Virus record (IMG/VR): IMGVR_UViG_3300023278_002686
Location: 32,001 to 96,000 of that record
From: a virus
Strand: one strand, 5' to 3'
DNA length: 64,000 nt
A program made the translations under genes and the position numbers. Position 1 is the stretch's first letter. Each line of letters opens with the position of its first letter. The notes under the pieces are model-generated. The model ran no database searches. It was given only the letters and a program-made list of their open reading frames with translations, and was not told the DNA's origin. Below, piece by piece: positions 26,176 through 43,123 of this stretch.

Positions 26176-26178
26176 TAT

Positions 26179-26933: not shown

Positions 26934-26950
26934 ATATATAAGGAGATAAC

Positions 26951-27502
26951 ATGGTAGTAATATTTGAAGGTCCTGATAATGTAGGAAAAGGAACTCAAAT
27001 TAGAAATATATTTCAAGAATTAAGTAAATCAAAACCTACACATACATTACATTATTCAGGAATTAAAAGAGATTTTTCTGAGGATGCTTTAAAAGATTCT
27101 AAAAAAATATATAAAAGTATGTTTAGATTATTAAATCAAAATTATATTCAATCTAATTTTATTTTAGATCGAAGTCATTTAGGTGAGTATGTTTATGGAC
27201 ATTTGTATAGAAAATATGATCCTAGTTATATATTTGATTTAGAAAAATCTATATTTCCAGGAATGATGAGCCAAACTTACTTATTAATGTTCATAGATAA
27301 CCCTATGAACCTCATCAAAAGAGATGATGGACTTTCTTTATCTACAAAAAAAAGATATAAGATTATAGAATTATATAGATTTCAAGAAGCTTTTAAATTA
27401 TCACATATCAAAAATAAATTTCTAATAGATATAGAAGGAAAAGATATTAATGATGTTAAACAAGAAATATTTAATTATTTAGACATTGAGGGAGATCTAT
27501 AA
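26951..27502 (+). CDS. thymidylate-kinase-like dNMP kinase
   Basis: IFEGPDNVGKGT P-loop, LDRSHLGEYVYG. Confidence 0.85.
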   Translation: MVVIFEGPDNVGKGTQIRNIFQELSKSKPTHTLHYSGIKRDFSEDALKDSKKIYKSMFRLLNQNYIQSNFILDRSHLGEYVYGHLYRKYDPSYIFDLEKSIFPGMMSQTYLLMFIDNPMNLIKRDDGLSLSTKKRYKIIELYRFQEAFKLSHIKNKFLIDIEGKDINDVKQEIFNYLDIEGDL

Positions 27503-28230
27503 TGCTAAGATATAATGAAATAACTATGTTACATTTTTTTAAAGATCTCTATAAGAAAGTAAAAGATGAAGATTTTGTAGTAGACAAATCTGGAGTCAAG
27601 ATGGCTGAAATAATAGCTCCAAAATTTGAATTGAATCCTAAACAAAAAATATTAAATTTTAATGAGACAAGAAAAACTCCTGAGAAATATGCTGAACAAG
27701 AATTAGCTTGGTATGATTCTCAAAGTCTTTCTATTAAAGGATATGTTGATAATGTAAAGATATGGCAACAAGTATCTTCATATAAGAAAGAAGTAAATTC
27801 TAATTATGGATGGTGTATTTATTCCCCTGATAATTATAGTCAATATTATAATTGTTTAAAAGAATTAATTAGAAATAAAGATTCAAGAAGAGCCGTTATG
27901 ATTTATCAAAGACCATCTATGTGGTTAGATTATAATAAAGATGGTATGTCAGATTTTATATGCACAGATGGGAGCCAATTATTTATAAGAAATAATAATA
28001 AAGGTGAAGACACTTTAATATATATTGTGAAACAAAGATCTATGGATATGATTTATGGGTTTTTTAATGATTTTTATTGGCATGGTATAGTATATGAACG
28101 AATGCTTAAAGATTTAAAAAAGACATATCCGAATTTAAATAATGGAAAGATAATATATGTTCCATTTTCGGCCCACGTATATGAAAAACATTTTAGTATG
28201 CTAAAGGAGATTGTTAATTGTGAAAAATAA
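27502..28230 (+). CDS. dCMP hydroxymethylase-like thymidylate synthase homolog (T4 gp42-like)
   Basis: ELAWY, VNSNYGW, IYQRPSM.LDYNKDGMSDFICT, QRSMD, GFFND (Asp = dCMP specificity), HVYEKHF. Confidence 0.9.
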   Translation: MLRYNEITMLHFFKDLYKKVKDEDFVVDKSGVKMAEIIAPKFELNPKQKILNFNETRKTPEKYAEQELAWYDSQSLSIKGYVDNVKIWQQVSSYKKEVNSNYGWCIYSPDNYSQYYNCLKELIRNKDSRRAVMIYQRPSMWLDYNKDGMSDFICTDGSQLFIRNNNKGEDTLIYIVKQRSMDMIYGFFNDFYWHGIVYERMLKDLKKTYPNLNNGKIIYVPFSAHVYEKHFSMLKEIVNCEK

Positions 28231-28651
28231 AATTGAATATTTTAAAAAGATAGCTCTTGAGACTGAAAATAATTCTACATGTGGTAGATTACATGTAGGA
28301 GCTGTTTTAGTAAAAGACGAGCGTATAATTTCTATAGGTTGGAACGGAACTCTTCCAGGAAAAATACATTGTGAAAATTTATTTGCAAAGAAAAAACTTA
28401 CATTAGCAACACACCATGAATGGTCATTAAAAAATGAACTTCATGCTGAAATGAATTTATTAATGTTTTGTGCAAAAAATGGAATTAAAACAAAAGGTTG
28501 TGAAGTATTTATTACAGTAAGTCCTTGTATGCTATGTACAAAATTGATAATTGCTGCAGGGATTAAAAAAGTTTATTTTATTTTGCAATATAATGATTTT
28601 GATGAAGTATTTAAATCTTTTAGAAAGGATTTAAAGTTTATACAAATTTAA
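28211..28651 (+). CDS. dCMP deaminase
   Basis: STC.R..VGA, GWNG, LHAEMN, SPCMLC; start may be GTG at 28220. Confidence 0.9.
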   Translation: MLIVKNKIEYFKKIALETENNSTCGRLHVGAVLVKDERIISIGWNGTLPGKIHCENLFAKKKLTLATHHEWSLKNELHAEMNLLMFCAKNGIKTKGCEVFITVSPCMLCTKLIIAAGIKKVYFILQYNDFDEVFKSFRKDLKFIQI

Positions 28652-28662
28652 CTATATAAATA
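28651..28662 (+). promoter_or_regulatory. late promoter motif at head of glycan island
   Basis: ACTATA TAAAT A. Confidence 0.6.
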
Positions 28663-28683
28663 TTATATAAAGTAGGAGCATAT

Positions 28684-29217
28684 ATGTTAAAAAATAAATT
28701 AAAACAATTTTTAATTTTATTTATAATTGGATTCGTTTCATATATTTGTTTAGAGGTTTTTTTCGGATCAAGTTCTGGAGCTTTTTTTAAAGAAGCATTT
28801 TGTTTAGATAAATCTTATTGGAGTCTAATGGGGATGTCATCTATGTGGATGGGATTAGTTGGTGGAATTACTTTTATTTCTTTAGGTTTAATTAACGAAA
28901 ATAAATTTATTCGATTTAAAGTACCATATATATTACAATTTATTTTAGGTGGATTAATAATTACTGGATATGAATTATTATCTGGAATAATTTTAAATTT
29001 AGGGTTAGGCTTAAATATTTGGGATTACTCTACTAGATTTTGGAATTTCTTAGGTCAAATTAATTTATATACTTCAATAATTTGGTTTATAATTTCTCCT
29101 TTTGGATTTTGGTTAGATGATTTAATACGTAATCTTTTTAAGTGTAGATGGTTTGGTACAAAATCATTAGGAACATATTATTTAAATGTTATATTAAATA
29201 AACATCCTTGGAAATAG
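28684..29217 (+). CDS. 4-TM membrane protein (CmpB/TMEM229-like putative permease)
   Basis: YICLEV, WMGLVGG, ITGYELLSG, IWDYS..WNFLGQINL. Confidence 0.75.
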   Translation: MLKNKLKQFLILFIIGFVSYICLEVFFGSSSGAFFKEAFCLDKSYWSLMGMSSMWMGLVGGITFISLGLINENKFIRFKVPYILQFILGGLIITGYELLSGIILNLGLGLNIWDYSTRFWNFLGQINLYTSIIWFIISPFGFWLDDLIRNLFKCRWFGTKSLGTYYLNVILNKHPWK

Positions 29218-29218
29218 A

Positions 29219-30307
29219 ATGAAAAAAGTATTAATATTAGGTAACGGATTAAGTAGACAAAAATTTGAAAGCATAGAATTTATTAATAATTGGGATGGGG
29301 AAATATGGGGTTGTAATAACGTTTTTAGAGAACGTATAAAGTTACCTAGATTAGATTTAATTATTGGTGATGATCAAACTGTGATAGATGGTTATCATTA
29401 TAAGCTTGATAATAAATTAGATTATGAGATATATGCAAAAAGACATATTACAAATTATACTAATCATAGAATACAGATAGTACATTTGCCTCAAGAATAT
29501 ATAAAAGATTCTGGAACTACACTAATATATAAAGCTTTATTTGAAAATTATGATGAAATTAAAGTTTGTGGATTTGATTGTGGTGGTAAAGATATATATG
29601 TTAAAGGACATGAAAAAAAAGATAAAACAATTTGGATAAAACGTTGGAGAGAAATTGATAAAGTATTTACTCTTAGAAAAATAGAATTCATTTGTAATCC
29701 AGAAATAAAAGAATTTATTATGAGTAAACGAGATCCAAGAGATCATCTTAATACATATTTTCCTGGAAAAATAAATAATAAAGTTAAAGAAAGAAATTTT
29801 GGAGCTAAAACAGTTCTTATATTAGGAAATGGTGCTTCAAGAATTAAATATAAAGATTTTATTAATAATTGGACAAGTGAAATATGGGGATGTAATTGGT
29901 TGTTTAAAGAAGCGGATAGTCATGAAAATCTTACTCGAATTGGAAGTGTTCATAATGAAGTAATATCAGAAGCATATAAGTTTAAAAAAGAGAATAATTA
30001 TAACTATCTATTATATACAAAGCCAGTATTTAGAGAAGAATTTAAAGATAAGTTTATTTCTTATTTTTCAGATCCTAGAGGATGGGCAACTGGGCCTTTA
30101 ATGGTATTACAAGCATTAACTGAAAATTATAGACGTATTTATTTAAGTGGATTTGATTTTGGAGGAAAAGATGTCTATCAAAATCATTTTATAGAAGGGA
30201 GTAATTTTCAAAAACAGTTTGTAGAAATAATTTCTAGGTTTGGTCATAGAAAATTAAAATTTGTTGGAAAAACTCCAAAATTTATATTGCAGTTACAAAG
30301 GAAGTAG
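29219..30307 (+). CDS. tandem-duplicated glycosyltransferase-like domain protein
   Basis: Two copies of VLILGNG.SR...FINNW..EIWGCN...SG/TG...ENY..I...GFD.GGKD.Y. Confidence 0.6.
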   Translation: MKKVLILGNGLSRQKFESIEFINNWDGEIWGCNNVFRERIKLPRLDLIIGDDQTVIDGYHYKLDNKLDYEIYAKRHITNYTNHRIQIVHLPQEYIKDSGTTLIYKALFENYDEIKVCGFDCGGKDIYVKGHEKKDKTIWIKRWREIDKVFTLRKIEFICNPEIKEFIMSKRDPRDHLNTYFPGKINNKVKERNFGAKTVLILGNGASRIKYKDFINNWTSEIWGCNWLFKEADSHENLTRIGSVHNEVISEAYKFKKENNYNYLLYTKPVFREEFKDKFISYFSDPRGWATGPLMVLQALTENYRRIYLSGFDFGGKDVYQNHFIEGSNFQKQFVEIISRFGHRKLKFVGKTPKFILQLQRK

Positions 30308-30308
30308 T

Positions 30309-31070
30309 ATGAAAATTGCGCTAATTACAATGATGGATGATCGATTTATAAAAGGTTTTGAAGCTTTTATTAAATCATTATTACATCATAATCCTTGGTT
30401 TAATTATCCTATGATAATTATTAATACAGGATTAATAAAAGAAAATCAAAAGAAATGTAAAAAGATGTATGACAATATCCATTTTTTCGCTCCTAAAGAA
30501 AGAGAATATCGACATGTCAATATGAAAAGAACTGAATATTGTTTACGAAAAACATACTATAAGTTAGACATGTTTTCTTATGAAAATTTTGATCGATTAG
30601 TTTTTATTGACATGGATACTATTATATTAGGAGATATCTCTTATTTATTTACACAGGTTGTGGCACCAATTGGAGCTTGTAAGGCATATGATTGGAAAGG
30701 AGATAGATTACGAAACGATTATAACTCAGGAGTTTTAGTTCTTAATTCTCCAGTAATTAACCTAGGAACATATAGAAAATTAATTATAAAAGCAAGACAA
30801 GGTTATTCGATGCCAGATCAAAAAACTATTAATAACTTTTTTGGTAAAAGAATATATCAAATACCTAAAATTTATAATTGTGAAAAACGTGTGAAGGATA
30901 GTATTTTTCTTCATTATGACAATAATAAAGGTAAATTAAGATTACAACAAGATGATATTAGAATACTTCATTTTGTTTCTCATAAACCTTGGAATCCATC
31001 TGGAAAATCGGAAAATAATCAAGGATACGAAGACTTAGAAGAAATATGGAAAAAATATTATGAGATGTAA
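30309..31070 (+). CDS. GT8 family glycosyltransferase
   Basis: YYKLDMF, FIDMDT (DxD), YNSGVLV, PDQ..IN, YN, ILHF...KPW; start at ATG 30309. Confidence 0.88.
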   Translation: MKIALITMMDDRFIKGFEAFIKSLLHHNPWFNYPMIIINTGLIKENQKKCKKMYDNIHFFAPKEREYRHVNMKRTEYCLRKTYYKLDMFSYENFDRLVFIDMDTIILGDISYLFTQVVAPIGACKAYDWKGDRLRNDYNSGVLVLNSPVINLGTYRKLIIKARQGYSMPDQKTINNFFGKRIYQIPKIYNCEKRVKDSIFLHYDNNKGKLRLQQDDIRILHFVSHKPWNPSGKSENNQGYEDLEEIWKKYYEM

Positions 31071-31285
31071 TGAAACTACTATTGATCATAGTCTTATTTT
31101 ACTAAAAGATACTATTAAATTATTAAAAAAAATAAAAAAAGAATCCAATTTTTATGATTGGTGGCCTATGATAGAATGTAACTTGATCAATATAAATAAT
31201 CTATTAGAAGTTAACAAGGAGAAATAATATGAACTGTACTTGGAAAAATTGTAATAATGGAAGAGCTTATGGAGATTAATGATTA

Positions 31286-31681
31286 ATGGTAGTAACTCAA
31301 ATTATTGAATGTGATTGTGGCAAAGAACATGAAGTAAATATAAATAATCCTTATATGGGAAAAAAACCGTATTCTTTTGAATTAGATTTTTGTCCTTCTT
31401 GTGGTAAAATGTTTAATTGTCCTGTATGCGGAAATAATTGTTGTTCACCATGCTATGGTCATTTAGATGGTGATTATACTGATGAATCTACTAAATGTCC
31501 TTTTTGTGAACTAACCTTTCAATATCAAGATTTATTTAGTTTAGTAACTCAATTAGCTTTTTTAAATGATACTGAATGGTTGAAGTGGGATAATGATCGT
31601 ACTAAATTATCTAAAGAAGAAATAATAAATAAAGCAATGAAAAATTTAAAAAATATAGGGAGTTTACATGGAAAAAATTAG
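31286..31681 (+). CDS. Cys-rich zinc-binding protein
   Basis: CDC, CPSC, CPVC..CC..C, CPFC. Confidence 0.6.
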   Translation: MVVTQIIECDCGKEHEVNINNPYMGKKPYSFELDFCPSCGKMFNCPVCGNNCCSPCYGHLDGDYTDESTKCPFCELTFQYQDLFSLVTQLAFLNDTEWLKWDNDRTKLSKEEIINKAMKNLKNIGSLHGKN

Positions 31682-32246
31682 TATAAGGAATGCTAAGTTT
31701 GCAAAAATTGGATTACATGATTTTTGTAAATATGTAAATAAATTTAAAAATACACGAGAAATGACTATTTTAGAAATAGGATCATATGTAGGAGATTCTA
31801 CACAAATATTTGCAAATTATTTTAAGAAAGTAATTGCGATAGATCCTTGGGAAAATGGATACGATGAAAATGATCAATCTTCATATAAATATCCAATGGC
31901 AATTATAGAAGCTCAATTTGATGGGATGAGAACAAACTTTCAACATATTGAAAAAATAAAAGATAAAGCAGAAAATGTTGTTTCTAAATTTGCAGATAAT
32001 TCAATTGACATAGTATATGTTGATGGACTTCATTCTTATGATGGAGTTATTAATGATATAAAAGATTGGTATTGTAAAGTAAAAAACGGTGGTTGGTTAG
32101 CTGGACATGATTATAAAAACAAACATCATCCTGGAGTAGAAAAAGCTGTTCATGAAATAGTTGGTCTTCCAGAAATGAGATTTGGAGATACTTCTTGGAT
32201 ACTTCCAAAGAAGACTATAGTAACTAGAGGAGGATTAAAACTATAA
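31668..32246 (+). CDS. class I methyltransferase (Methyltransf_24-like)
   Basis: LEIGSYVGDS, IDPW, DIVYVDGLHSY, GGWLAGHDY. Confidence 0.85.
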   Translation: MEKISIRNAKFAKIGLHDFCKYVNKFKNTREMTILEIGSYVGDSTQIFANYFKKVIAIDPWENGYDENDQSSYKYPMAIIEAQFDGMRTNFQHIEKIKDKAENVVSKFADNSIDIVYVDGLHSYDGVINDIKDWYCKVKNGGWLAGHDYKNKHHPGVEKAVHEIVGLPEMRFGDTSWILPKKTIVTRGGLKL

Positions 32247-32842
32247 TGGTATACGCAAAATTATCTACATTATCTGAAAAATGGAAAGAATTAGATGGAA
32301 AGTATCCATGTAAATATGATTGGCCTAAAGATTGTGGAAGACAATGTGGTGATAGCGGAATTGTATTGCGTAAAGGATCTATGGATGAAGTATTTACTTC
32401 AGAAAATCCTGTAAAAGAAGTAGTCGATAGTTACTCTTATACTACAGCATTTTTTGAAGCCTTTCCTAAAGAACCCTCTACATTTATTCGGGGAGAAGGA
32501 AAAACATTAGAAGAAGCTGAAAAAGCTGCTTGGGATAAACTTCAAAAATATAGTAAATGTGATCATCCTGAATTTGATAGAAAAGGATATAAAAATGGAG
32601 GATGTTTTTGTATAGAATGCGGAATGTTTTCCTCTCATTTAGAACCAACTACGGTATGTACTGTTTGTAATATACCTACTAATTATGGTACTGACAAAAA
32701 TAATCAGTGGTATTGTAAAGAACATTATAAAGAATTACCCGATGATATGTTACATGATTATATCTTATTATCTAAAAAAAGAAGAAAACAAGTAGATAAA
32801 ATTTTAAAAAAAAGGAAAACTTATGATTTGGAAAAAGTTTAA
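32246..32842 (+). CDS. conserved phage protein with Zn-ribbons
   Basis: TAFFEAFP...FIRGEG...AE..AW, CDH, CIEC, CTVC. Confidence 0.65.
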   Translation: MVYAKLSTLSEKWKELDGKYPCKYDWPKDCGRQCGDSGIVLRKGSMDEVFTSENPVKEVVDSYSYTTAFFEAFPKEPSTFIRGEGKTLEEAEKAAWDKLQKYSKCDHPEFDRKGYKNGGCFCIECGMFSSHLEPTTVCTVCNIPTNYGTDKNNQWYCKEHYKELPDDMLHDYILLSKKRRKQVDKILKKRKTYDLEKV

Positions 32843-33086
32843 AACTATTGAAGATTTAGAACAAGGTGATATTGTTATTTGGAAAAATACTAATGATTTT
32901 AAAGAATTTTGTTTAGTAACTGATTGTGGTTTAGAATCTTTTGTAGAAGGTTGGACCTATAATTGGATGGATAGAGATTATGAGAGTGATGGAAATTTTT
33001 ATAATATAGATGATGAATATATTGGAACTATTACAGGATATACTCGATTAGATATACCTAAAGATACAGAAATTTATGAAGAATAA
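32823..33086 (+). CDS. hypothetical protein
   Basis: 87 aa ORF in operon. Confidence 0.5.
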   Translation: MIWKKFKTIEDLEQGDIVIWKNTNDFKEFCLVTDCGLESFVEGWTYNWMDRDYESDGNFYNIDDEYIGTITGYTRLDIPKDTEIYEE

Positions 33087-33194
33087 ATTGATAAAATGGA
33101 GTTCTATTATATTATTAGCTATAATGGCATTTGCTTTTAAGAATGTAATTTTATTATTAATTTCTATATTTTTAATTGCTACATAGGAGGATTT

Positions 33195-33884
33195 ATGAAT
33201 AATGAACAAGCAACTCAAGTTTTTAGGAATTATATCAAAGGAAAACGAGTTATTTTTGTAGGTCCAGCTGCCAATTTAATGAATAGAGGACTTGGATCTT
33301 TAATTGATTCTTATGATGTAGTAGTAAGAACCAATGGATCTAAAGTATTAGATAGATCTCTTTGGAAAGATTATGGATGCAGAACACATATTTGTTATTT
33401 TAATGTACAACATTTAAGAGAAGAACATCCTTTTCCTATAGAAGACATGAAAGCTCACAGAATAGATCATTTAGTATTTAAGGGAGTAAGTAAAGGTATA
33501 CGAGACTATTACGAAACTTATTTTAATGTTCGAGATGTAGCACCCTTAATTCAAGAATTACATAGAAAAATTGATGGATTACTTATGGGTCCAATTCTTA
33601 TTACTGACTTACTTGAGAGTAAACCCAGTGAGCTTTTTGTTACTGGGATTGATTGTTATATAACTAAACCTGATGCGTTTATACCAGATGACTATCGTGA
33701 ATATTATCCTAAATATTTAGGAAATAAAATAGAAACAAAAGCTAATGTAGCTAACATAGGACGAATTGATCCTCACTTAAAGAAGAAAGATAATACTATA
33801 TATATAAAACAATTAATCGATTCTAAACAAATAACGACACATGATTTTGTACTGGAATCGATAAAAAAAGCATTAATGAGGTAA
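33195..33884 (+). CDS. GT29-like sialyltransferase
   Basis: Sialylmotif-L-like VIFVGPAANL..RGLGSLIDSYDVVVRTN...DYGCRT; LLMG, VTGIDCY, late His. Confidence 0.75.
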   Translation: MNNEQATQVFRNYIKGKRVIFVGPAANLMNRGLGSLIDSYDVVVRTNGSKVLDRSLWKDYGCRTHICYFNVQHLREEHPFPIEDMKAHRIDHLVFKGVSKGIRDYYETYFNVRDVAPLIQELHRKIDGLLMGPILITDLLESKPSELFVTGIDCYITKPDAFIPDDYREYYPKYLGNKIETKANVANIGRIDPHLKKKDNTIYIKQLIDSKQITTHDFVLESIKKALMR

Positions 33885-33886
33885 TT

Positions 33887-34315
33887 ATGAAGATTTTAAA
33901 ACAAAAGAAAGAACAGTATTTAAATACTATTCAGGTGTATGGAAAACCATCTAATATTTATATAAACCCTACTGTAAGCGAGTTAATTGACTTAACATTA
34001 AGAAGCAAATATGATGAATTTAGTTTTATTATAGATAATAGACATAAGACTATTTATTCATTTGATTGTACTGTTTTACACAGTGATGTATGTAAATTTT
34101 TAAAATTATCGTATCCATCTGATAAAATTTTACCAGGACTTGGATATTTTAAAGGTAAAAATTCATATAGTAAAATTTCAGGAACACTAATTGATCTTAT
34201 ATCAAGTAATCCTGAATTAGTTCGTAAATTATGTAAACAAAATTGGAAATGGGCTAATAAATATATATATACACAAACTTTATTAGATGATATTATGGAA
34301 AGATTATCAAACTAA
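33887..34315 (+). CDS. putative internal virion protein
   Basis: MKILKQKKE leader; IYINPT..EL. Confidence 0.5.
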   Translation: MKILKQKKEQYLNTIQVYGKPSNIYINPTVSELIDLTLRSKYDEFSFIIDNRHKTIYSFDCTVLHSDVCKFLKLSYPSDKILPGLGYFKGKNSYSKISGTLIDLISSNPELVRKLCKQNWKWANKYIYTQTLLDDIMERLSN

Positions 34316-34335
34316 AAAATTATTAAGGAAATAAA

Positions 34336-35406
34336 ATGTTAAAAAAATCTTTAAAGGTCTTTGATTTACCTACATCGGATTCTAGTTATTTATCAGTTAG
34401 TCAAGATAGCGAAAATCGTATAAAGATGTATTATCGAAAATGGCTAAAGCATTGTCATGTATGGGGTATTCATGGAAATAATTCTAAGAATTTTACATTT
34501 ATAGAAGATCCTCTTATTAAAAAAACAGATGCGTCACATAACTTTACAGTTACGTATCAACCACATCTTAAATTATTTATAGGAATAGGGGGATTAGAAG
34601 AATGGAAAAGACAAAAACGCTGGCATGAAATTACGGATTTTGAAATTTTTAAAAAAGAATTTGAAGGATACTTTCATAAACCGTATGTAAGAGATGAGGC
34701 AAGATTTCTTTCTCTTAAAAAAGCATTAAAAGGATGGGTAAATCATTCAAATGGACTTTATCTTTTTCATTCTAAAGATGGGATAAACTGGAATCAAAGA
34801 CATCCTAATCATATTGCAACTATTCATGATAAAGGATTTACATGTGCTCTAGATTGGGGAAAATCTTCTGATTTTGATGGAATGAATAATTTAGTATATA
34901 ATCCACATGAACAACGTTATTATCTATATGTTAGATCTAATGTAGCTAAAGGAGTACGATACATACAGTATGCTACTTCAAAAGATTTGATAACTTGGTC
35001 TAAATGGAAAAATATAAATATGATTCCAGAATTTGATAAACATACAGATGGTTATTATTTTCCTAATTTTATGATGCATCCAACTAAGAATATTATGTTT
35101 GGATTAGTTCCTTATTGTTCTGCAAAAAAATCTTCTATACAATTATTTAAATCAACTGATGGATATAATTGGAATTATGTAGAAGAATATTTATCAAGAC
35201 CTCCAGTACCTTTAGTAAAAAAAGGAAAAATAAAAACATATAAAAATTATCATCATCCTGTTTTAGGCTATCTTTATGATAAAGATCAACAAATTTTATA
35301 TTTTTATATGCAGAATAACTATTTTATGTATGATAGATCTCATTATACCTACGTAGATCGATATAAAGTAATGGAAAAAGAATTAGATAAAAGGTTATGG
35401 ATATAA
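34336..35406 (+). CDS. beta-propeller glycoside hydrolase-like protein
   Basis: Asp-box-like repeats SKDGINW, SKDLITW, STDGYNW; YYLYVR. Confidence 0.65.
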   Translation: MLKKSLKVFDLPTSDSSYLSVSQDSENRIKMYYRKWLKHCHVWGIHGNNSKNFTFIEDPLIKKTDASHNFTVTYQPHLKLFIGIGGLEEWKRQKRWHEITDFEIFKKEFEGYFHKPYVRDEARFLSLKKALKGWVNHSNGLYLFHSKDGINWNQRHPNHIATIHDKGFTCALDWGKSSDFDGMNNLVYNPHEQRYYLYVRSNVAKGVRYIQYATSKDLITWSKWKNINMIPEFDKHTDGYYFPNFMMHPTKNIMFGLVPYCSAKKSSIQLFKSTDGYNWNYVEEYLSRPPVPLVKKGKIKTYKNYHHPVLGYLYDKDQQILYFYMQNNYFMYDRSHYTYVDRYKVMEKELDKRLWI

Positions 35407-35560
35407 TTATGGGTATAGATTATGTAGAATGTCCTTTTTGTAAAGAAAAAGATTTTGATTTAATAGGATTAAAACATCATTTAGATACAGGTCAATGTAG
35501 TGTATTTGAAAAAACTGATACAATTTATCAAGAACATTTAGAAAGAAAGGAAGATAATTA

Positions 35561-36613
35561 ATGAACATATTTTTTCAATTAATATATTCAAAAAAAGCAT
35601 ATGGAGAATCTAAGAATTTTGTAGATGATCATAGATTTTGGATTCTAAAAGGAATCGCGGATATTTTAGTAAGTAGAGGACACGTAGTATATATATTAAA
35701 AATGAATTATCCTCCAGTAAAAAATTTAGGTATGGATAAATTTATTTTATCTAAGACAAAAAAACCGAATATAAAATTTGATTTAGCAGTAGTTCATAGT
35801 GATATGAAATACGCTAAACATTATTTAAAGGAAGAGTTTAAATCTAAACCTAAAGCATGCTTTGATTATAGTTTTTTACCAGAATCATTAATTATAGATA
35901 CAGGTGGATTATTTAATAATTCTAAGAACTATATGAAGATGCAAAATATTTTAGATAAAATTATTATTACAGATTCTTTACGTCAAAAATGTGTTTCTAT
36001 GATAAAAGAAAATAAATCTAAAAGACCACAAAAACGAATAGATAAAATTCCAAGTTCTAAGTATATATTTATCCCAGGTCAAGTTCTTAATGATAAATCT
36101 ATTATGAAACATTCTAAATGGAATCAATTAACTTTTATTGAAAAAGTAATTAACTTTGGAATTGAAAAAGGGTTAGATATAGTGTTTAAGCCTCACCCTG
36201 GAATGAGATATGATGTAGCTAAACATGGTAGACAAATAATAGAAGATAGATGTAAAGAATGGAAAAAATTATATAAAAATTTTTATGTGGTTAATACTTC
36301 TATATATGATCTTATTCAACAAGCTCAATTTACAGCATGTATCAATTCAGGAAGTGTTATAGATAATTTTATTTGTCAATCTCCAGTATATTGTGCTGGA
36401 AATATGTATTGGACAAATACAAAAGCAGTAGTTCATAATGAAAATGTCGATGAAGGACTCTTAACAATGTTTAACAAAGAATATAATTTAGTTACTATGA
36501 AAGAAACTCAATTAAGAGCTGTTCAATGGTGTTTAAATAATTTACTTTTTAAAAATAATTCTCCTATAGAAAACTATAAGAGATTTTTAAGGTTAACAGG
36601 ATTTAAACTATAA
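35561..36613 (+). CDS. capsule polysaccharide protein KpsS/KpsC-like (Kdo-transferase-type)
   Basis: FIPGQVLND.SI, VFKPHP, CINSGS. Confidence 0.72.
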   Translation: MNIFFQLIYSKKAYGESKNFVDDHRFWILKGIADILVSRGHVVYILKMNYPPVKNLGMDKFILSKTKKPNIKFDLAVVHSDMKYAKHYLKEEFKSKPKACFDYSFLPESLIIDTGGLFNNSKNYMKMQNILDKIIITDSLRQKCVSMIKENKSKRPQKRIDKIPSSKYIFIPGQVLNDKSIMKHSKWNQLTFIEKVINFGIEKGLDIVFKPHPGMRYDVAKHGRQIIEDRCKEWKKLYKNFYVVNTSIYDLIQQAQFTACINSGSVIDNFICQSPVYCAGNMYWTNTKAVVHNENVDEGLLTMFNKEYNLVTMKETQLRAVQWCLNNLLFKNNSPIENYKRFLRLTGFKL

Positions 36614-36915
36614 TGGAAAATGGATGTAAATGTCAAGAATGTGGGAATTTATATAAGATAGATTTAATGGTTCCTAATAATATATGGATTGAAATTAGAC
36701 CTGAAAATAAATCAGAAGAAGGTGGTTTACTATGTCCATGTTGTATTATTTTAAAAATAGAAAAATTAACTAGGGAATTTAAAGTATTCTTTTTAGAGGA
36801 AGAGTTCAAAAGTGATGAAGAACTTGAAAACGAATTATTAATAGAAGTAAATGAATCTAGAAAAGAATATTACAAAGATCAACTTAAACCTCTTAGTTAT
36901 GGAGATTGTTCATGA
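36613..36915 (+). CDS. zinc-binding phage protein
   Basis: CQEC..DLMVPNNIW...GLLCPCC. Confidence 0.6.
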   Translation: MENGCKCQECGNLYKIDLMVPNNIWIEIRPENKSEEGGLLCPCCIILKIEKLTREFKVFFLEEEFKSDEELENELLIEVNESRKEYYKDQLKPLSYGDCS

Positions 36916-37175
36916 AATGTAGAATTTGTAAAAAACCAATTAAATTATTAAGAAGAACGATATATCAAGAGAATAGCTATTGTGACTTTGAATGTTTTAA
37001 GAAGACTGAAGAGTATCATATTTTTCATAAAAAATTTAAGCATTTTTGGAAATCTTTAAGCGAAGATCAACAATATGAATTTTTTAATTTATGGGATAAT
37101 GGAATTTTTGAAGATCTATTGTTTGATGATATGATTTATAAAAAATTAAGTAAGGTATTTAAGGAACATGAGTAA
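36906..37175 (+). CDS. hypothetical zinc-finger protein
   Basis: CRIC ... YCDFEC. Confidence 0.55.
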   Translation: MFMKCRICKKPIKLLRRTIYQENSYCDFECFKKTEEYHIFHKKFKHFWKSLSEDQQYEFFNLWDNGIFEDLLFDDMIYKKLSKVFKEHE

Positions 37176-37497
37176 AAAATTATTATTTAGTGTAACAAAA
37201 AAGGATCTGGATATTACTTATTTCTCAGGTAAAGGAGCTGGAGGTCAACATAGAAATCGACATATGAATTGTGTTCGAATAAAACATTCTGAATCTGGAG
37301 TTATTGTTACTGGACAAGAAGAAAGATCTAAAGATAGAAATCTAAAAACGGCTTTCCTTAGATTAACTAAACATCCTAAATTTAAGTTATGGTTAAAATT
37401 AAAATCTTCTGAAAATTATTTAAGTGAAGTGGAGTTAAATAAAAAAATAGATAAAATGATGGAAGAAGAAAATCTTAAAATTGAATATGGAATTTAA
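37168..37497 (+). CDS. stand-alone release factor GGQ domain (ArfB/PrfH-like peptidyl-tRNA hydrolase)
   Basis: GKGAGGQHRN...VRIKHSESG...QEERS..RN. Confidence 0.88.
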   Translation: MSKKLLFSVTKKDLDITYFSGKGAGGQHRNRHMNCVRIKHSESGVIVTGQEERSKDRNLKTAFLRLTKHPKFKLWLKLKSSENYLSEVELNKKIDKMMEEENLKIEYGI

Positions 37498-38640
37498 ATG
37501 AAAAAATTATTATTTATTAATGATACAAGTAAAAGTCTTAATATAGGTTGTCAAGTTACAATGCATTGTATTAATAGGTGGTTAAATAATTGTAAGTATG
37601 AAGTAACAAGATTTCCTTTAGAAATTATTAATTCTAAATGGTTTAAAAAAATTCCTAAAGGAATACTATATGATGATTGGGGTTTAAATGAGTTATATAA
37701 CAATTGGATAGATCATGGCTCAGATCCTATGAAAGAATATATAAATTATGTATTAGATAATATTTTTGATTGTGATTTTATTATTGCGAATGGAGAAGGA
37801 AGTATTATACGGGATAAAAGACATACTAGAACTTTATTATATATTCTTTATATTGCAAAAAAAATATTTGGTAAAAAAATTATATTATTTAATTTTACAT
37901 CTGATTTACAGGAAGAAGGATCTTATTTAGGAGAAATTATTTATCCGTTATTAGATTGGGTAAGTACAAGAGAAATGGAGTCATATTCTGAAGTTAAGAA
38001 ATATAATGCAAATGTACAATTTATTCCCGATATGGTTTTAACTTTACGAAATTATAAAGAAGTAAAAGAAGGTAAGTATATATTACTAGGTGGAAGTTCT
38101 TATTTTAATACAGTAGAACGTAAAAAAAATATAAAATATGCAATAGCATTATATCAAGATCTAGTAAATAATTATCCTCAATATAAATTTATAGGATGTG
38201 CTTGGAATAAAGATGATTGGTTATCTAAAATAGAAGCATTTAATTATGAATATGTAGAAGCTAGAAATTGGAAACATTATGCTAGATTAGTAAGAGATTC
38301 TATTATGAATATTACAGGAAGACATCATGGAATTATTCTTTCTTATGTATTTAACATCCCTTATTTAGCCTTTGAAGCCAATTGTCATAAAACAAAAGGA
38401 GACGCTTCTACTTATATTTATAGAGAAAATCCATATGAACCATTTAGTTATTTAGATAAATCTTTAGATATTATAAAAGCTATGAATAATCTTTTAGATA
38501 ATGAGTGTCAATATAAAAATAACATTTTAAATGAAAAGAAAAAAATGTATAAACTTTATGATAGAAGTAATAATAAATTAACCACCCTATTTAAACTATA
38601 TAATTATGAAAAAAGTATTAGTAACTTTATTAACTCCTAA
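37498..38640 (+). CDS. polysaccharide pyruvyltransferase-like protein
   Basis: NIGC, NGEGS, TREMES, PDMV, TGRHHG, HK. Confidence 0.75.
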   Translation: MKKLLFINDTSKSLNIGCQVTMHCINRWLNNCKYEVTRFPLEIINSKWFKKIPKGILYDDWGLNELYNNWIDHGSDPMKEYINYVLDNIFDCDFIIANGEGSIIRDKRHTRTLLYILYIAKKIFGKKIILFNFTSDLQEEGSYLGEIIYPLLDWVSTREMESYSEVKKYNANVQFIPDMVLTLRNYKEVKEGKYILLGGSSYFNTVERKKNIKYAIALYQDLVNNYPQYKFIGCAWNKDDWLSKIEAFNYEYVEARNWKHYARLVRDSIMNITGRHHGIILSYVFNIPYLAFEANCHKTKGDASTYIYRENPYEPFSYLDKSLDIIKAMNNLLDNECQYKNNILNEKKKMYKLYDRSNNKLTTLFKLYNYEKSISNFINS

Positions 38641-39376
38641 TTTTATGCCTGGATTTATTGCTTGGATAAAATCTATTAAAAAAAATTGTCATTTTAAAGA
38701 TGATCTTATAGTAATAGACTGTGGTTTAAATGAGGAACAAAAAACTACTTGTAAAAAATATTATTCAAGAATTATATTTAGAAAACCTAGATATCCCCAG
38801 TATGCTCATTTAGATTTAACTAAAGTAGCAAATCATTTTAAGCCTGTTTTTTATAAGTTAGATTGTTTTTCGTATGTAGATTACGATAGAATTGTTTTTA
38901 TAGATATAGATACACTAATACTTCAAGATTTTTCTTATTTATTTGAAGGAATTGAAGCTTCTTTTTCTGCTGGATCAGGTTATGGAGAATTAAAAGAAGT
39001 TTTTGAATCGACTAATTTAAATTCTGGCGTATTTGTAATCAATAAAGAATATCTTAATATGAGAACTTATGGTACTTTATTATCTTATATTGGAAATAAA
39101 GGTATAAGATATGAACAAGATATTTTGAGAAAGTTTTTTAAGAAAAAAACTAATTTTTTAGAAAGTCCTAAGTGGAACTATAAAAAACATATTTATGCAT
39201 CAAAACAATGGAGAGATAAATGGAATATAGAAAAAGATATTGTAATTTTGCATTTTATATCTTTTAAGCCATGGCAAGATTTATCTGATGATCCTTATAG
39301 AGAAAAATTGAAACCTCTTTATGATTTATGGAATTATTACTATACATTAAAGGAGAATTTATGTCAAAAGAGTTAA
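38606..39376 (+). CDS. GT8 family glycosyltransferase
   Basis: FYKLDCF, FIDIDT, LNSGVFV, EQD, WN, ILHF..KPW. Confidence 0.88.
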   Translation: MKKVLVTLLTPNFMPGFIAWIKSIKKNCHFKDDLIVIDCGLNEEQKTTCKKYYSRIIFRKPRYPQYAHLDLTKVANHFKPVFYKLDCFSYVDYDRIVFIDIDTLILQDFSYLFEGIEASFSAGSGYGELKEVFESTNLNSGVFVINKEYLNMRTYGTLLSYIGNKGIRYEQDILRKFFKKKTNFLESPKWNYKKHIYASKQWRDKWNIEKDIVILHFISFKPWQDLSDDPYREKLKPLYDLWNYYYTLKENLCQKS

Positions 39377-39930
39377 CTAGAAGAATGAGAAAAAAACCTG
39401 AGTTTATACAAGGTTTATTAGATATGCTGGATTATATTGATGAAAATTCTAAGTTCGATTTATCAAGAGCAGTTATGATAGAAATAGGTAGTTATTTAGG
39501 AGAATCTTCTGAAATATTTGCTGGAAAAGTAAGTACTTTATATTGTATAGATCCTTGGAAATCAGGATACGACCCTAGCGACTATGCTTCTTGGAAATAT
39601 GATCTTGAAGAAGTTTATGCTACATATAAGAAACGTATGAATAGATTTAATAACGTTACAACAATTAGAGAAACCTCTAAAGAAGCTAATACGAAAATGA
39701 AAGATCAATTTGATATAGTATATATTGATGGAAATCACCAACCGAAATATGTAAAAGAAGATTTAGAAATGTGGACTCCTTTGGTTAGCAATTTAGGTTG
39801 GATTTGTGGACATGACTACGGACATAAAGATTATCCAGAATTACAGGAAGTTGTAGATACTTTCTGTAAAGGAAAACCTGATATGGTTTTTAAAGATACG
39901 AGTTGGTGTATTAAAAAAGAACATATTTAA
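39361..39930 (+). CDS. class I methyltransferase (Methyltransf_24-like)
   Basis: AAGGAG before ATG 39361; IEIGSYLGES, IDPW, DIVYIDGNH, GWICGHDY; paralog of 31668. Confidence 0.85.
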   Translation: MSKELTRRMRKKPEFIQGLLDMLDYIDENSKFDLSRAVMIEIGSYLGESSEIFAGKVSTLYCIDPWKSGYDPSDYASWKYDLEEVYATYKKRMNRFNNVTTIRETSKEANTKMKDQFDIVYIDGNHQPKYVKEDLEMWTPLVSNLGWICGHDYGHKDYPELQEVVDTFCKGKPDMVFKDTSWCIKKEHI

Positions 39931-39941
39931 AGGAAAATAAA

Positions 39942-40652
39942 ATGGAAAACTCAACATTTAAACAGTGGATTGAAGGAGCAAAAGTAATTTTCGTAGGTCC
40001 TTCACCTATTTTAAAAGAAAGAAACTTAGGAAAGTTTATAGATAAATATGATATAGTTGTTCGCACAAATGGTGCTACTAGATTTCCATTAGAAGTTCAA
40101 AAAGATTATGGAAAAAGAACTGATGTATTATACGTAAATACCCAATTTACTCAAGATAATCATCCATTTAATATACGAGAAATGCAAAAAGCAAAATTAA
40201 AATGGTTATGTTTTAAAAATAATAAATATAATAGAATGGAATATTATCAACCTTATTTCCAAACAAGACATATTAATCATGTAATTCATCAATTACATAA
40301 ATTGCCTATCTCAGGATTGCTTTATGGGAATGCTGTAATAGCTGATATTTTAGCTCAAAATCCTAAAGAATTATTTCTTACAGGAATTGATTGTTATATA
40401 AATAAACCTATTGAATATGAAGATACTGGTTTCTCAGAGTATATAGAGGGATACTTTACAGATAAACATAAGAAATTATATAACAAAAGAAACAAAGGAA
40501 TAACAGATAATCATTGTAAATACGAAAATACAAGATATCTATGGGACCTATTACAAGCTGGTAAAATACAAACACATAATTATATAAAAGATATTATGTC
40601 TGAAATATTAAGTAATCCAAAAAAATATAAATTATCAGAATATAGGAGATAA
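39942..40652 (+). CDS. GT29-like sialyltransferase
   Basis: VIFVGPS..L..RNLGKFIDKYDIVVRTN...DYGKRT; LTGIDCY; paralog of 33195. Confidence 0.75.
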   Translation: MENSTFKQWIEGAKVIFVGPSPILKERNLGKFIDKYDIVVRTNGATRFPLEVQKDYGKRTDVLYVNTQFTQDNHPFNIREMQKAKLKWLCFKNNKYNRMEYYQPYFQTRHINHVIHQLHKLPISGLLYGNAVIADILAQNPKELFLTGIDCYINKPIEYEDTGFSEYIEGYFTDKHKKLYNKRNKGITDNHCKYENTRYLWDLLQAGKIQTHNYIKDIMSEILSNPKKYKLSEYRR

Positions 40653-40655
40653 AGT

Positions 40656-41390
40656 ATGAAAAAAGCTTTAGTATTTGCATTTAACGATAAATTTTTTCCA
40701 GGATTTAAAGTAACTTTAAAATCATTTCTTAAACATAATCCCGATTATGATGGTGATATTATTATTCTTGACTTTAATCTTTCTAATGAAATTAGAATGA
40801 AATGTTTGGAAATTTATCCTACTTTAACATTTAAATTAATTAACTATGATCTTTATAAAATGGATCAATCTAAAGTTGAATCTCAATTTACAGATACCGT
40901 TTATAAATTAGATATGTTTTCATTATATAAATATGATAGAATTGTTTTTTTAGATGTAGACACTTTAGTAATTAAGCCGATTTATGAATTATGGGAATTA
41001 GATTTTCCTATTGCAGCTTGCTTAGATTTTAAAGCAAAAGGTGGAAAATTATTTGAAAAAAGAATTAATTCAGGAGTATTAGCTTTTGGAGGAGAATGTT
41101 TAAAACCAGAAGTTTATAAAGAATTAATTAAATATACTGTTAATAATTTTGCAGCTAATTTACCTGATCAACAACCTATTAATGATTTTTTTGGATCTAA
41201 AATGTATATACTCCCTAATAAATATAATTATTTTAAGGCTATGTATGCTCATAAAAGATTTAAAGAGAAATTTGATGAAGCTAAAATTATTCATTTTTAT
41301 ATTAAAAAACCTTGGCAAAAAGAACATAAAGAAGAGTGGTGTTATCCTAAAATAAAACCATTATATGATTTATGGAATAGTTATATTTAA
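40656..41390 (+). CDS. GT8 family glycosyltransferase
   Basis: YKLDMF, FLDVDT, INSGVL, PDQ..IN, YN, IIHF..KPW. Confidence 0.88.
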   Translation: MKKALVFAFNDKFFPGFKVTLKSFLKHNPDYDGDIIILDFNLSNEIRMKCLEIYPTLTFKLINYDLYKMDQSKVESQFTDTVYKLDMFSLYKYDRIVFLDVDTLVIKPIYELWELDFPIAACLDFKAKGGKLFEKRINSGVLAFGGECLKPEVYKELIKYTVNNFAANLPDQQPINDFFGSKMYILPNKYNYFKAMYAHKRFKEKFDEAKIIHFYIKKPWQKEHKEEWCYPKIKPLYDLWNSYI

Positions 41391-41662
41391 AGAGTTATAT
41401 AATGTCCTTTAAACATTTGTTTTGCTTTATCAGTTAAAGGATAAACTCTCATTCTATTAAAAGGTTTTCCATCTATTATTTCATCCCAATAGAGCTCAAT
41501 CCATTCAGGTTGTTTTGTTTTAGGATTTTTTCTTATTACATAAGATTTATTCCAATCTCCTTTTAAAGGTCTATATTCTATTTTAACGTTTTTCTTTAAC
41601 CATATTTGAAATTTCTTTAAAAGATCTTGAATATTTATGTTTATTTCGAATAGTATTTTCAT
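41387..41662 (-). CDS. putative internal virion protein; only credible minus-strand gene
   Basis: Fills the gap between + genes; MKILFE leader; ACTATA-N5-ATG on minus strand (41673-41660). Confidence 0.75.
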   Translation of the reverse strand: MKILFEININIQDLLKKFQIWLKKNVKIEYRPLKGDWNKSYVIRKNPKTKQPEWIELYWDEIIDGKPFNRMRVYPLTDKAKQMFKGHYITL

Positions 41663-41710
41663 AATAATATAGTCGTTAAGTTTTTAGATTATTTTAAACT
41701 ATATTAATAT

Positions 41711-42301
41711 ATGACAGACTATGAACATATTTATACAACAATTTACAAAAAGGGATATCATGCTGGGTATAAAAACCTACAGATAAAAGAAAAATATCCT
41801 CAACTATTAACAGACGCTTATCATTTTAAATCTATTTTAGATATAGGGTGTAGTCAAGGAAGAGCGGTATTAGAATATCAAAAACTAGGTAAAAATGCAT
41901 ATGGAATTGATGTTTCTAAAGAAGCTATAAGACAATCTTTAGAACAAAACATTTTTCATTGCCTACATGCTTCGGTATTAGATATTCCTTTTAAGAATAA
42001 TTTTATAGATGCTGTAGTAACTTGTGATGTATTAGAACATTTAGCTGAAGAAGATCTTTCTAAAGCAATTAAAGAATTAGTAAGAATTACTAAAGAATGG
42101 TTTTTTATCAAAGTAGCATATAAAGTTGAAATGTCTGATAAATGGTTAAAAGTATTAAGAAAAGCAACTGGTCAATATAATGATCTTCCTAATCTACATT
42201 TGTCAGTATTCCCAAAAGAAAAATGGATTGAATTATTTAAAAAAGAAGGCGTGAAATTTAAAGAAGAATATCATGATATTTTGATATTCAAAAAAGGATA
42301 A
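41711..42301 (+). CDS. class I SAM-dependent methyltransferase
   Basis: ILDIGCSQG, GIDVS, DAVVTCDVLEH; late motif at 41698. Confidence 0.88.
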   Translation: MTDYEHIYTTIYKKGYHAGYKNLQIKEKYPQLLTDAYHFKSILDIGCSQGRAVLEYQKLGKNAYGIDVSKEAIRQSLEQNIFHCLHASVLDIPFKNNFIDAVVTCDVLEHLAEEDLSKAIKELVRITKEWFFIKVAYKVEMSDKWLKVLRKATGQYNDLPNLHLSVFPKEKWIELFKKEGVKFKEEYHDILIFKKG

Positions 42302-42304
42302 TAT

Positions 42305-43123
42305 ATGAATATCATCGGAGAAGTGGGAATTAATTGGAATGGATCTATAGATAAAGCAAAAAAATTAATAGATATTATTTCATTGGCCGGATGCGATTAT
42401 GTTAAGTTTCAAAAAAGAGATCCAGATAAATGTGTCCCTGATCATCAAAAAGAAAAAGAAAAAATAGTTCCGTGGAGAAAAGAACCTACTACTTATTTAC
42501 AGTATAAAAAGGATATAGAATTAAATGAAGAACAATATAAGGAATTGAAATTATATTGTCACGATAAAAAAATATCTATGTTTTCTTCTGCTTGGGACAT
42601 TGATTCGGCTAAATTTTTAAAAAACTTTGATTATATTGTTAAAATTCCATCAGCAAAGATTACAGATTTAGAATTATTAGATTATTGTAGAGATAGATTT
42701 GATCAAAAAATATTGTCAACTGGCATGAGTACAGAACAAGAAATAGAAGAAGCGGTTAAAATATTAAAACCAACAATAATTATGCATACTAATAGTATAT
42801 ATCCTACACCATCAAAAGATCTTAATTTAGGTTATATTGATTGGCTTCAACAAAAATATTCTCATACTGAAATAGGATATTCTTCTCATTTCTTTGGATT
42901 ATTAGATTCTTTTGTAGCTTTAGGAAAAGGATGTACTTGGTTAGAAAAACATGTATGTGAATCTCATAATGATTGGGGATCAGATCAAAGTTCTTCTATA
43001 GAACCTCATGGATTATTTAAATTGGTAAAATCAATAAGAGAATTAGAAGGTCCAAATGAAAAAGGAAATGAGAAAAGATGGCCTTATCCAGGTGAAGATA
43101 TAAAAAGAGATCAATTAAGATAA
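42305..43123 (+). CDS. neuB: N-acetylneuraminate / nonulosonic acid synthase (NeuB family, no SAF domain)
   Basis: IIGEVGINWNG, VKFQKR, SAWD, KIPSA, LSTGMS, MHTNSIYP, GYSSH, LEKH, GSDQSSS. Confidence 0.9.
   Translation: MNIIGEVGINWNGSIDKAKKLIDIISLAGCDYVKFQKRDPDKCVPDHQKEKEKIVPWRKEPTTYLQYKKDIELNEEQYKELKLYCHDKKISMFSSAWDIDSAKFLKNFDYIVKIPSAKITDLELLDYCRDRFDQKILSTGMSTEQEIEEAVKILKPTIIMHTNSIYPTPSKDLNLGYIDWLQQKYSHTEIGYSSHFFGLLDSFVALGKGCTWLEKHVCESHNDWGSDQSSSIEPHGLFKLVKSIRELEGPNEKGNEKRWPYPGEDIKRDQLR

Follow-up and report, generated by a model that had tools for sequence, protein, structure and literature searches.

A predicted nonulosonic-acid glycosylation island in an uncultured T4-like phage and related cassettes in other phage lineages

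Introduction

Nonulosonic acids (NulOs) are surface sugars of animals and of the envelopes and appendages of bacteria and archaea, and to our knowledge the glycosylation of phage virions has been shown only for some mycobacteriophages. Here we analyze a 14.5 kb glycan island (28651–43123) in a window of 64,000 nucleotides, bases 32001–96000 of a single 155,054-bp viral contig (IMG/VR record IMGVR_UViG_3300023278_002686), which on its predicted enzymes supplies the transfer and decoration half of a cytoplasmic NulO glycosylation system that the phage encodes. The contig, 92% complete by the CheckV estimate and with a guanine-plus-cytosine (GC) content of ~25% throughout, belongs to an uncultured T4-like phage; it encodes a tail sheath, a tube and a tape-measure-like protein, all ~24% identical to their counterparts in T4-like phages of Rhizobium, Pelagibacter, Campylobacter and cyanobacteria. 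Positions below are those of the window unless marked as genome coordinates, and island features lie on the plus strand unless stated otherwise.

The nearest described precedent is mycobacteriophage virion glycosylation of the Che8/Corndog type (PMC12619734), which resembles the system proposed here in its soluble phage glycosyltransferases (GTs) and in the decoration, proposed or shown, of capsid and tail proteins in the cytoplasm without a lipid carrier; in these phages, glycans are carried on the C-termini of the capsid and tail-tube proteins (Freeman 2023, via PMC12619734). That account reports no nonulosonate, GT29-like, Maf-like, pyruvyl or KpsS-like enzymes, and its phages infect Actinobacteria, whereas for the island phage the virion target comes from genomic context alone. 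Giant viruses glycosylate capsids or fibrils (chlorovirus A064R, Megavirinae; PMC10117803), likewise by viral sugar synthesis in the cytoplasm and with GTs that include GT-A/GT8-like folds, but their hosts are eukaryotes and their sugars differ, with viosamine, bacillosamine and rhamnose as examples (PMC10117803).

Further parallels come from cellular organisms. The flagellin Maf islands of bacteria, which handle pseudaminic (Pse), legionaminic (Leg) or N-acetylneuraminic acid (Neu5Ac), share a NeuB-family synthase, a cytidine monophosphate (CMP)-NulO synthetase and a transferase of the Maf/CstII fold with the phage system; they modify, in the cytoplasm, a structural protein that assembles by itself, and decorations, methyl groups among them, are common. 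According to one study, Maf enzymes place NulOs straight onto flagellin Ser/Thr residues in the cytoplasm (10.1101/2020.06.03.131540). The phage, by contrast, has no flagellin, and no enzymes of the PseB/C or LegB/C type were found in it; it has a YrbI-type phosphatase, and adds GT8 and GT29-like proteins. Eukaryotic GT29 and Campylobacter GT42 (CstI/CstII) sialyltransferases have in common with the phage proteins their fold, a motif-L-like segment and an invariant His, but the phage proteins are ~230 aa long, soluble, without stem or transmembrane (TM) segment, without a conserved Cys and mostly found in viral contigs. Finally, the route to 2-keto-3-deoxynononic acid (KDN) in Bacteroides thetaiotaomicron and the eukaryotic Neu5Ac-9-phosphate route likewise combine a NeuB synthase, a YrbI/KdsC phosphatase and a CMP-synthetase; in the phage, however, the phosphatase scores under curated cut-offs, and the phosphatase and synthetase genes lie ~60 kb from NeuB. 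Full-text literature searches returned no description of a phage NeuB/GT29-like cassette, and viruses go unmentioned in a published NeuB phylogeny of large size (PMC8208679). What our analysis would add, judging from sequence, is virus-encoded virion glycosylation, itself known, that here involves a nonulosonate pathway and viral families with a sialyltransferase fold.

Results and discussion

An initial annotation made from the sequence alone had described the island as late-expressed and as a candidate system for virion sialylation, and every enzyme it named in 28651–43123 was recovered through Pfam, fold or motif matches. At the center of the proposed pathway stands a NeuB-family nonulosonate synthase of 272 aa (42305–43123; PF03102, 196 bits), a TIM barrel that has no C-terminal SAF domain. 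It scores 189 bits against the NCBIfam NeuB equivalog TIGR03569, below the cut-off of 399.65, and 127 bits against PseI; its best PDB match, 6ncs, is also SAF-less, and it shows local identity to PDB NeuB homologs at ysshf and lekh. SAF-less NeuB proteins occur in environmental bacteria (PMC8208679).

Two further pathway genes lie outside the window, amid replication genes. One is a CMP-nonulosonate synthetase (CTP_transf_3; genome 13620–14396, minus strand; PF02348, 52.6 bits), for which the best model is PseF-like (92 bits), and the other, its neighbor, a YrbI/KdsC-type HAD protein of 170 aa (genome 13059–13571) that matches the KDN-9-phosphate phosphatase model at 114 bits and KdsC at 104 bits. 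The same two genes stand within the glycan cassettes of the T4-like loci L094, L101 and L107, fused into one open reading frame (ORF) in L094. A search of the whole genome found no NeuC, DegT aminotransferase, short-chain dehydrogenase/reductase (SDR) epimerase or dehydratase, or KdsA, and no precursor enzymes of the PseB/C or LegB/C type. The absence of NeuC, KdsA, aminotransferase and SDR points to a sugar-6-phosphate route of the KDN or Neu5Ac type, and the YrbI-type phosphatase implies a phosphorylated one; we infer a phosphorylated route that starts from a host hexose-6-phosphate, like the KDN and eukaryotic Neu5Ac pathways. The nonulosonate enzymology first proposed for the island is upheld by these results and extended by a putative CMP-synthetase and ulosonate-phosphate phosphatase beyond the window. 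The term sialylation, on the other hand, names the sugar too specifically, since the type of nonulosonate is not fixed.

In the scheme that these genes suggest, the SAF-less NeuB would condense phosphoenolpyruvate with a host hexose-6-phosphate (mannose-6-phosphate or N-acetylmannosamine-6-phosphate), the HAD protein, resembling KdsC and KDN-9-phosphate phosphatase, would take off the phosphate, and the CMP-NulO synthetase would activate the sugar. Transfer would then fall to two GT29-like enzymes, a tandem CstII/Maf-like protein and a KpsS/C-like enzyme, while three GT8 enzymes would add neutral hexoses, and two Methyltransf_24 proteins, one Methyltransf_11 protein and a pyruvyltransferase would decorate the glycan. 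What the sequences show are family and fold assignments, the lack of membrane and export components, a conserved cassette and its placement in other phages; the identity of the sugar, the order of the steps, their late timing and the acceptor are what we infer from this gene content and its setting.

The transferases themselves are diverse. Both GT29-like sialyltransferases, a (33195–33884; 28.2 bits) and b (39942–40652; 36.4 bits), exceed the PF00777 gathering score of 23 bits and are 40% identical to each other, the match spanning only positions 58–153 of the 272-position profile, the region of sialyl motif L. An AlphaFold2 (AF2) model of protein b, built on a 55-sequence alignment (predicted local distance difference test, pLDDT, 93.8), has the GT-A variant 2 sialyltransferase fold, and all Foldseek matches from rank 1 to rank 41 are GT29 or GT42 sialyltransferases (5bo6, E 1e-7, TM-score ~0.5), among them the GT29 enzymes ST8SiaIII, ST6GalNAc2, ST3Gal and ST6Gal1 and the GT42 enzymes CstII and CstI. 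The motif-L-like segment, which in sialyltransferases binds CMP, aligns to ST6Gal1; His191 of protein b, located where a catalytic base would be expected, is invariant across the 55 aligned sequences, and no Cys column is conserved among them. The proteins also carry TGxD and YxEY, which, together with His191, may correspond to sialyl motifs S, III and VS, as judged by eye. What supports the GT29-like proteins as CMP-nonulosonate users is their co-occurrence with NeuB and the CMP-synthetase.

The protein that the initial annotation had called a double-domain GT-like protein (29219–30307) proved to be a tandem of two ~180-aa domains with a sialyltransferase fold (CstII/MptE/Maf-like), as seen in its internal repeat, AF2 model and Foldseek matches. 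It has no Pfam match, and its hhalign matches to the GT29-like and Maf-like profiles are weak (probability 20–25%; E 7.5e-4 and probability 25% against the Maf-like family of the cassettes), so a fold search was needed to place it. The model of the ~180-aa unit (pLDDT 92.4) retrieved, in order, CstII/CstI, MptE-like HPPK kinase, a sialyltransferase from Pasteurella, members of GT29 and the flagellin glycosyltransferase Maf (5mu5); among Atlas clusters that carry a Pfam domain, the nearest is MptE-like, and the family is 88–100% viral in the Atlas. The last of the predicted NulO transferases is a KpsS/KpsC-like Capsule_synth protein (35561–36613; PF05159, 40.6 bits against a cut-off of 20, profile positions 130–266 of 310; PDB KpsC 6mgd, E 0.0016). 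Two homologs of it were found, and it stands outside the conserved core cassette described below. Taken together, the two GT29-like proteins, the tandem protein and the KpsS/C-like protein amount to five modules of kinds that use CMP-activated ulosonic acids.

The remaining glycan enzymes would extend and decorate the product. All three GT8 proteins, a (30261–31070; PF01501, 61 bits; 45% identity to its L094 homolog), b (38606–39376; 54 bits) and c (40656–41390; 70.6 bits), cover the full PF01501 profile (positions 2–251) and carry both the DxD motif, DMD in GT8 a, and a C-terminal KPW. Two sugar O-methyltransferase-like proteins belong to Methyltransf_24, the first (31668–32246; PF13578, 62 bits) 53–55% identical to its cassette orthologs and the second (39328–39930; 56 bits) with a weak RMNT_CmcI match; a third methyltransferase is of the Methyltransf_11 family (41711–42301; PF08241, 64 bits; 38–42% identity to cassette orthologs). 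The polysaccharide pyruvyltransferase (37498–38640; PF04230, 74.6 bits) spans positions 1–276 of a 280-position profile and matches the CsaB model weakly (37 bits; cut-off, 213). A GT8–Methyltransf_24–GT29-like triad is present twice in this phage, with paralogs 33–40% identical; these are closer to orthologs elsewhere than to each other, and the duplication is therefore not recent. For the protein earlier labeled an Asp-box hydrolase (34336–35406), the beta-propeller is borne out by an Atlas model of propeller type and by three Asp-box-like motifs (SxDxxxW), whereas the hydrolase role is a candidate one: the protein, conserved in cassettes (L089, L093, L094, L095/96 and L100) and with Atlas neighbors from viruses, Verrucomicrobiota and Planctomycetota, is a possible glycoside hydrolase or acceptor-binding module.

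Beyond this phage, relatives of the SAF-less NeuB were found in at least 96 viral contigs, and a core set of cassette genes is found again in four or more phage lineages. Its order is a Maf/MptE-like protein, CMP-synthetase, GT8, methyltransferases, propeller, sometimes a NeuB–cupin fusion, GT29-like protein and NeuB (L089, L093, L095/96, L097, L099 and L100; contig GC 29–45%), and smaller versions occur in the T4-like L094, L101 and L107 (shared DNA polymerase, 38% identity), some with fused ORFs that join a tandem-type domain, GT8 and a GT29-like protein (L101) or GT8 and Methyltransf_24 (L107). In the siphovirus-like contigs, the cassette directly follows the major head gene and is itself followed by a head–tail adaptor, tail genes and the tape measure (PHROG and Pfam assignments), with head gene, cassette and adaptor and tail genes tightly spaced on one strand. 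Three major-head families have an adjoining cassette, namely phrog_247 (L097, L089), phrog_1005 (L099, L093) and phrog_617 (L100), and these siphovirus-like cassettes begin with a protein that weakly matches the MptE/Maf-like family PF01973 (27 bits, below the 34.6 cut-off). Two cassette-bearing genomes, G001 at 66.4 kb and G002 at 51.9 kb, have terminal repeats and are complete; neither has a gene of the thymidylate synthase family (PF00303) or a tyrosine integrase, and the complete, cassette-bearing T4-like genome G005 likewise has no PF00303 homolog.

The GT29-like family is large. Its profile retrieved 2,297 clusters (50% identity) at E ≤ 1e-3 among 1.84 billion representatives, and pattern-seeded scans confirmed it in 210 viral contigs, giant-virus metagenome bins included, and in only four loci in one-per-species genomes of 185,579 prokaryotes, a comparison limited by the seed patterns of the scans. 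In GenBank phages, megablast found no match to the island DNA, and tblastn none to the GT29-like, tandem and one of the GT8 proteins or to the product of 43137–43865, the gene after the island (50,697 records for the GT29-like and tandem proteins); for NeuB, the matches were limited to two records of uncultured phages and a bacterial contig that had been mis-filed. As no GenBank phage homolog of the GT29-like or tandem proteins was found, no isolate is available yet.

Two observations on individual cassettes may be added here. Positions 1–20672 of L089 equal 509518–530189 of CP070724.1, a record titled as a chromosome of a Thermoplasmatales archaeon; the stretch holds a complete phage-type head–cassette–tail region, including a tape measure and a major head gene of the phrog_247 type that shares 67% identity with that of L097, and is either an archaeal provirus or a binning or assembly artefact. 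In three loci, a second NeuB paralog is fused to a C-terminal cupin domain (L093 7472–8950, L096 7921–9381, L100 7910–9373), and its presence beside the SAF-less NeuB suggests two different ulosonates or an extra isomerase or epimerase step.

Consistent with what the initial annotation had claimed, no island GT has a hydrophobic segment that could serve as a TM anchor, the other glycan enzymes of the island likewise have none, and the genome lacks the parts of an export pathway. At most four hydrophobic segments were counted in any ORF of the 155-kb genome, which leaves it without a polytopic membrane protein, and the same holds for the complete cassette-bearing genomes G001 and G002; in none of the three did we find a priming GT, flippase, polymerase, ligase or ABC permease. 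A soluble, cytoplasmic system without lipid-carrier or export machinery is thus supported by the predicted proteins.

Timing was approached through ACTATA, a promoter-like motif. As first reported, it is found at 28651 (ACTATATAAATA, 28651–28662, 27 nt upstream of the first island gene) and at 41698 (ACTATATTAATAT, 41698–41710, directly upstream of the methyltransferase–NeuB pair), and further sites stand directly before genes at 32240, 36607 and 38595, the last (ACTATATAATT) upstream of GT8 b. The hexamer is usually extended to ACTATATAAWT and often abuts the ATG. When counted no more than 45 nt upstream of a gene, for which the chance rate is ~3%, it precedes 12 of the 33 genes of the structural region (43–64 kb) and five of the 21 island genes (28684, 32246, 36613, 38606 and 41711), as against two of 39 in the upstream replication and nucleotide region. 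By this frequency the island resembles the structural genes, and the motif may act as a late promoter. A sigma-70 scan (143 sites against 151.6 expected from shuffles) was uninformative at 25% GC.

The site at 41698 also has an outward-facing partner at 41673 on the minus strand, 25 nt away, each lying 5–7 nt before an ATG (of 41387–41662 and 41711–42301, respectively), and the pair would be divergent putative late promoters. Separately, a protein of ~220–268 aa with a weak Sigma70_r2 match (22 bits) is common to this phage (genome 110146–110808; L175 146–808), L094 (5110–5916) and L107; as a candidate for a late sigma factor of the gp55-like kind, it could recognize ACTATATAAWT.

On which molecule would such a glycan be built? 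The initial annotation had proposed capsid or tail proteins. Its cytoplasmic set of enzymes for a methylated and pyruvylated nonulosonate glycan is borne out by the predictions above, a cytoplasmic nonulosonate pathway being the part of the reading that we hold with confidence, and the acceptor gains contextual support from the position of the cassette; we give the virion proteins of the phage itself about an even chance of being that acceptor. The recurrence of the cassette, usually right after a capsid gene, makes a coat on virion proteins the most likely outcome, and the case for a glycan on the phage particle lies in the fact that unrelated phages have the cassette inserted, time and again, between their capsid and connector genes, within the head-to-tail morphogenesis operon. 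Virion proteins are also favored because the promoter motif is shared with structural genes, because lipid-carrier and export components are absent from this genome, G001 and G002, because flagellin is glycosylated by the bacterial relatives of two kinds of cassette protein, those weakly similar to Maf (PF01973) and those with the CstII/Maf fold, and because a lysogeny gene, the tyrosine integrase, is absent from G001 and G002. The wider proposal, that in four or more lineages of aquatic tailed phages the capsid or tail is covered by an acidic, O-methylated glycan with a sugar of the KDN or sialic-acid type, made in the cytoplasm by a portable cassette, is a tentative one that we hold at somewhat below even.

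Several observations weigh against a virion acceptor or against parts of the proposed pathway. A scan of the structural proteins for Ser/Thr-rich segments gave no clear acceptor candidate, and in this phage the island adjoins a cluster of hydroxymethyl-cytosine and beta-glucosyltransferase (BGT) genes. The motif is called late through its association with structural genes and through nothing else. [quoted passage not shown] The invariant His of the GT29-like family is absent from the tandem CstII-like domain, which may therefore not be an active NulO transferase, and known KpsS/KpsC enzymes act on a lipid acceptor. Moreover, bacterial GT8 and CstII-type enzymes, which are peripheral in the membrane and have no TM anchors, modify lipo-oligosaccharide (LOS); the missing TM segments therefore leave room for a target in the host envelope.

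Such a target is the first alternative to be weighed. The enzymes would remodel the host envelope during infection, acting at the cytoplasmic face on the LOS or lipopolysaccharide (LPS) core, a lipid-anchored capsule, S-layer, flagellin or pilin and relying on host export, and the altered receptor surface would block rival phages or keep progeny off debris. The KpsS/KpsC family, with one homolog in the island, builds a lipid-linked Kdo linker. GT8 is the dominant GT family of pelagimyophages, where it is interpreted as modifying O-chains (PMC7029224), large marine cyanomyoviruses with 13 GTs and KdsA/KdsB have been interpreted likewise (PMC12801897), and a study of Acinetobacter describes a capsule nonulosonate altered by prophage-encoded enzymes (PMC12053666). 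Against these precedents, the KpsS/C-like gene lies outside the conserved core, the priming GT, flippase, polymerase, ligase and ABC permease are missing, the cassette sits in the head-to-tail morphogenesis operon of three capsid lineages, G001 and G002 carry no tyrosine integrase, and late remodeling in a lytic infection leaves little time for an effect. We consider a host-envelope target plausible but less likely than virion proteins.

Less probable again is some other soluble acceptor, whether a non-structural protein of the phage, a cytoplasmic protein of the host, an internal protein that is packaged, or a glycoconjugate that is free or a small molecule. It would suit a system in which every enzyme is soluble and the scan of structural proteins yielded no clear candidate, but we found no precedent for it, a place between capsid and connector genes accords better with exposed virion proteins, and elaborate glycans of this acidic, methylated kind are typically displayed on surfaces; we regard it as improbable.

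The last alternative, that the transferases extend a sugar on hydroxymethyl-cytosine and that the island is the downstream half of a hypermodification cluster (22576–28651), is suggested by the BGT-like gene (phrog_7922, E 1.6e-53), the thymidylate-synthase-like gene (a hydroxymethylase) and the dCMP deaminase directly adjoining the island, and by phage GTs, GT8-fold enzymes included, that make mono- to trisaccharides on 5-hydroxymethylcytosine (10.1101/2023.12.21.572611), but has only a very slim chance of being right, because the cassette occurs in the complete genomes G001, G002 and G005 without a Thymidylat_synt homolog, the genes of 22576–28230 have no homolog beside the cassette in any related locus, the island bears the structural-gene motif, unlike the region upstream, and the study of those GTs found only hexose, HexNAc and heptose on DNA, with sialic acid, NeuB and pyruvate unmentioned (10.1101/2023.12.21.572611). 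A Tet_JBP search had no positive control and is uninformative here.

If virion proteins are indeed the acceptor, sialic-acid-type biology would extend to phage particles, from synthesis through transfer, and "sialylated" virions would be a widespread, undescribed trait of environmental phages. Such a coat would bear on the charge and stickiness of particles and on their recognition by hosts, grazers and immune systems, and it would affect how the many "LPS genes" in marine phage genomes are read. The virosphere would also hold close structural relatives of the animal sialyltransferase family, with GT29-like and CstII/Maf-like families that are large and mainly viral, and the phage GT29-like family would be a data point on the origin of eukaryotic GT29. 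Glyco-engineering would gain compact candidates in the soluble GT29-like enzymes of ~230 aa and in the SAF-less NeuB.

The gene list that the initial annotation gave for the island was right in its glycan enzymes and left out a number of other genes. These are a small PF06541 membrane protein (28684–29217), the only membrane protein of the island; small Cys-rich ORFs; an ArfB-like RF-1 domain protein; and a minus-strand ORF of 91 aa (41387–41662), which has its own ACTATA motif at 41673. The Cys-rich products comprise a protein with no family match (31286–31681), a 198-aa protein that follows the ACTATA at 32240 and precedes an 87-aa ORF (32246–33086 for the two), and two small ORFs (36613–37175), the first starting straight after the ACTATA at 36607. 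A 142-aa ORF (33887–34315) received no assignment in library searches. The ArfB-like RF-1 protein (37168–37497; 109 aa; PF00472, 57 bits), akin to the peptidyl-tRNA hydrolases ArfB and ICT1, has a 66% identical homolog between GT8 and Methyltransf_24 in the T4-like L094 cassette and is, by its predicted function, a passenger and no glycan gene.

Directly after the island lies 43137–43865, with ACTATATAAAT upstream, which had been labeled a neck gene. That label could not be confirmed, as the product had no match in Pfam, PHROG, NCBIfam, PDB or GenBank phages; the T4 neck family PF11649 matched nowhere, controls included, and is uninformative here. A homolog of 42% identity lies downstream of the cassette in the T4-like L101, and searches for related loci with this protein or the KpsS-like protein as single query returned no relatives.

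Three further regions of the contig call for mention. The product of 18561–19679 matches phrog_1211 (adenylosuccinate-synthetase-like, PurZ-type; E 3e-48), which hints at purine modification besides the cytosine cluster. In 23667–26919, a CofD/YvcK-like domain fused to a HAD domain precedes a methyltransferase-like ORF and a nucleotidyltransferase that is IspD/CofC-like; none of these genes has a homolog near the cassette in the other loci compared, and the activation of a phospho-compound and its transfer as a phosphodiester would be a possible task of the CofC/CofD-type pair, for DNA or for a glycan. On the minus strand at genome 115020–122932 (83020–90932 in window numbering, past the end of the window; L175 5020–12932), the analysis found a 740-aa tail-fibre-like protein with a C-terminal Peptidase_S74 intramolecular chaperone domain. 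After it, in the same direction, come four small ORFs and genes for a GT2-like protein, a protein of the Sulfotransfer_2 family and two enzymes of the radical-SAM/SPASM kind. Homologs of the Sulfotransfer_2 protein lie within the glycan cassettes of L094 and L095/96, and this region may be a second cluster for the modification of virion proteins.

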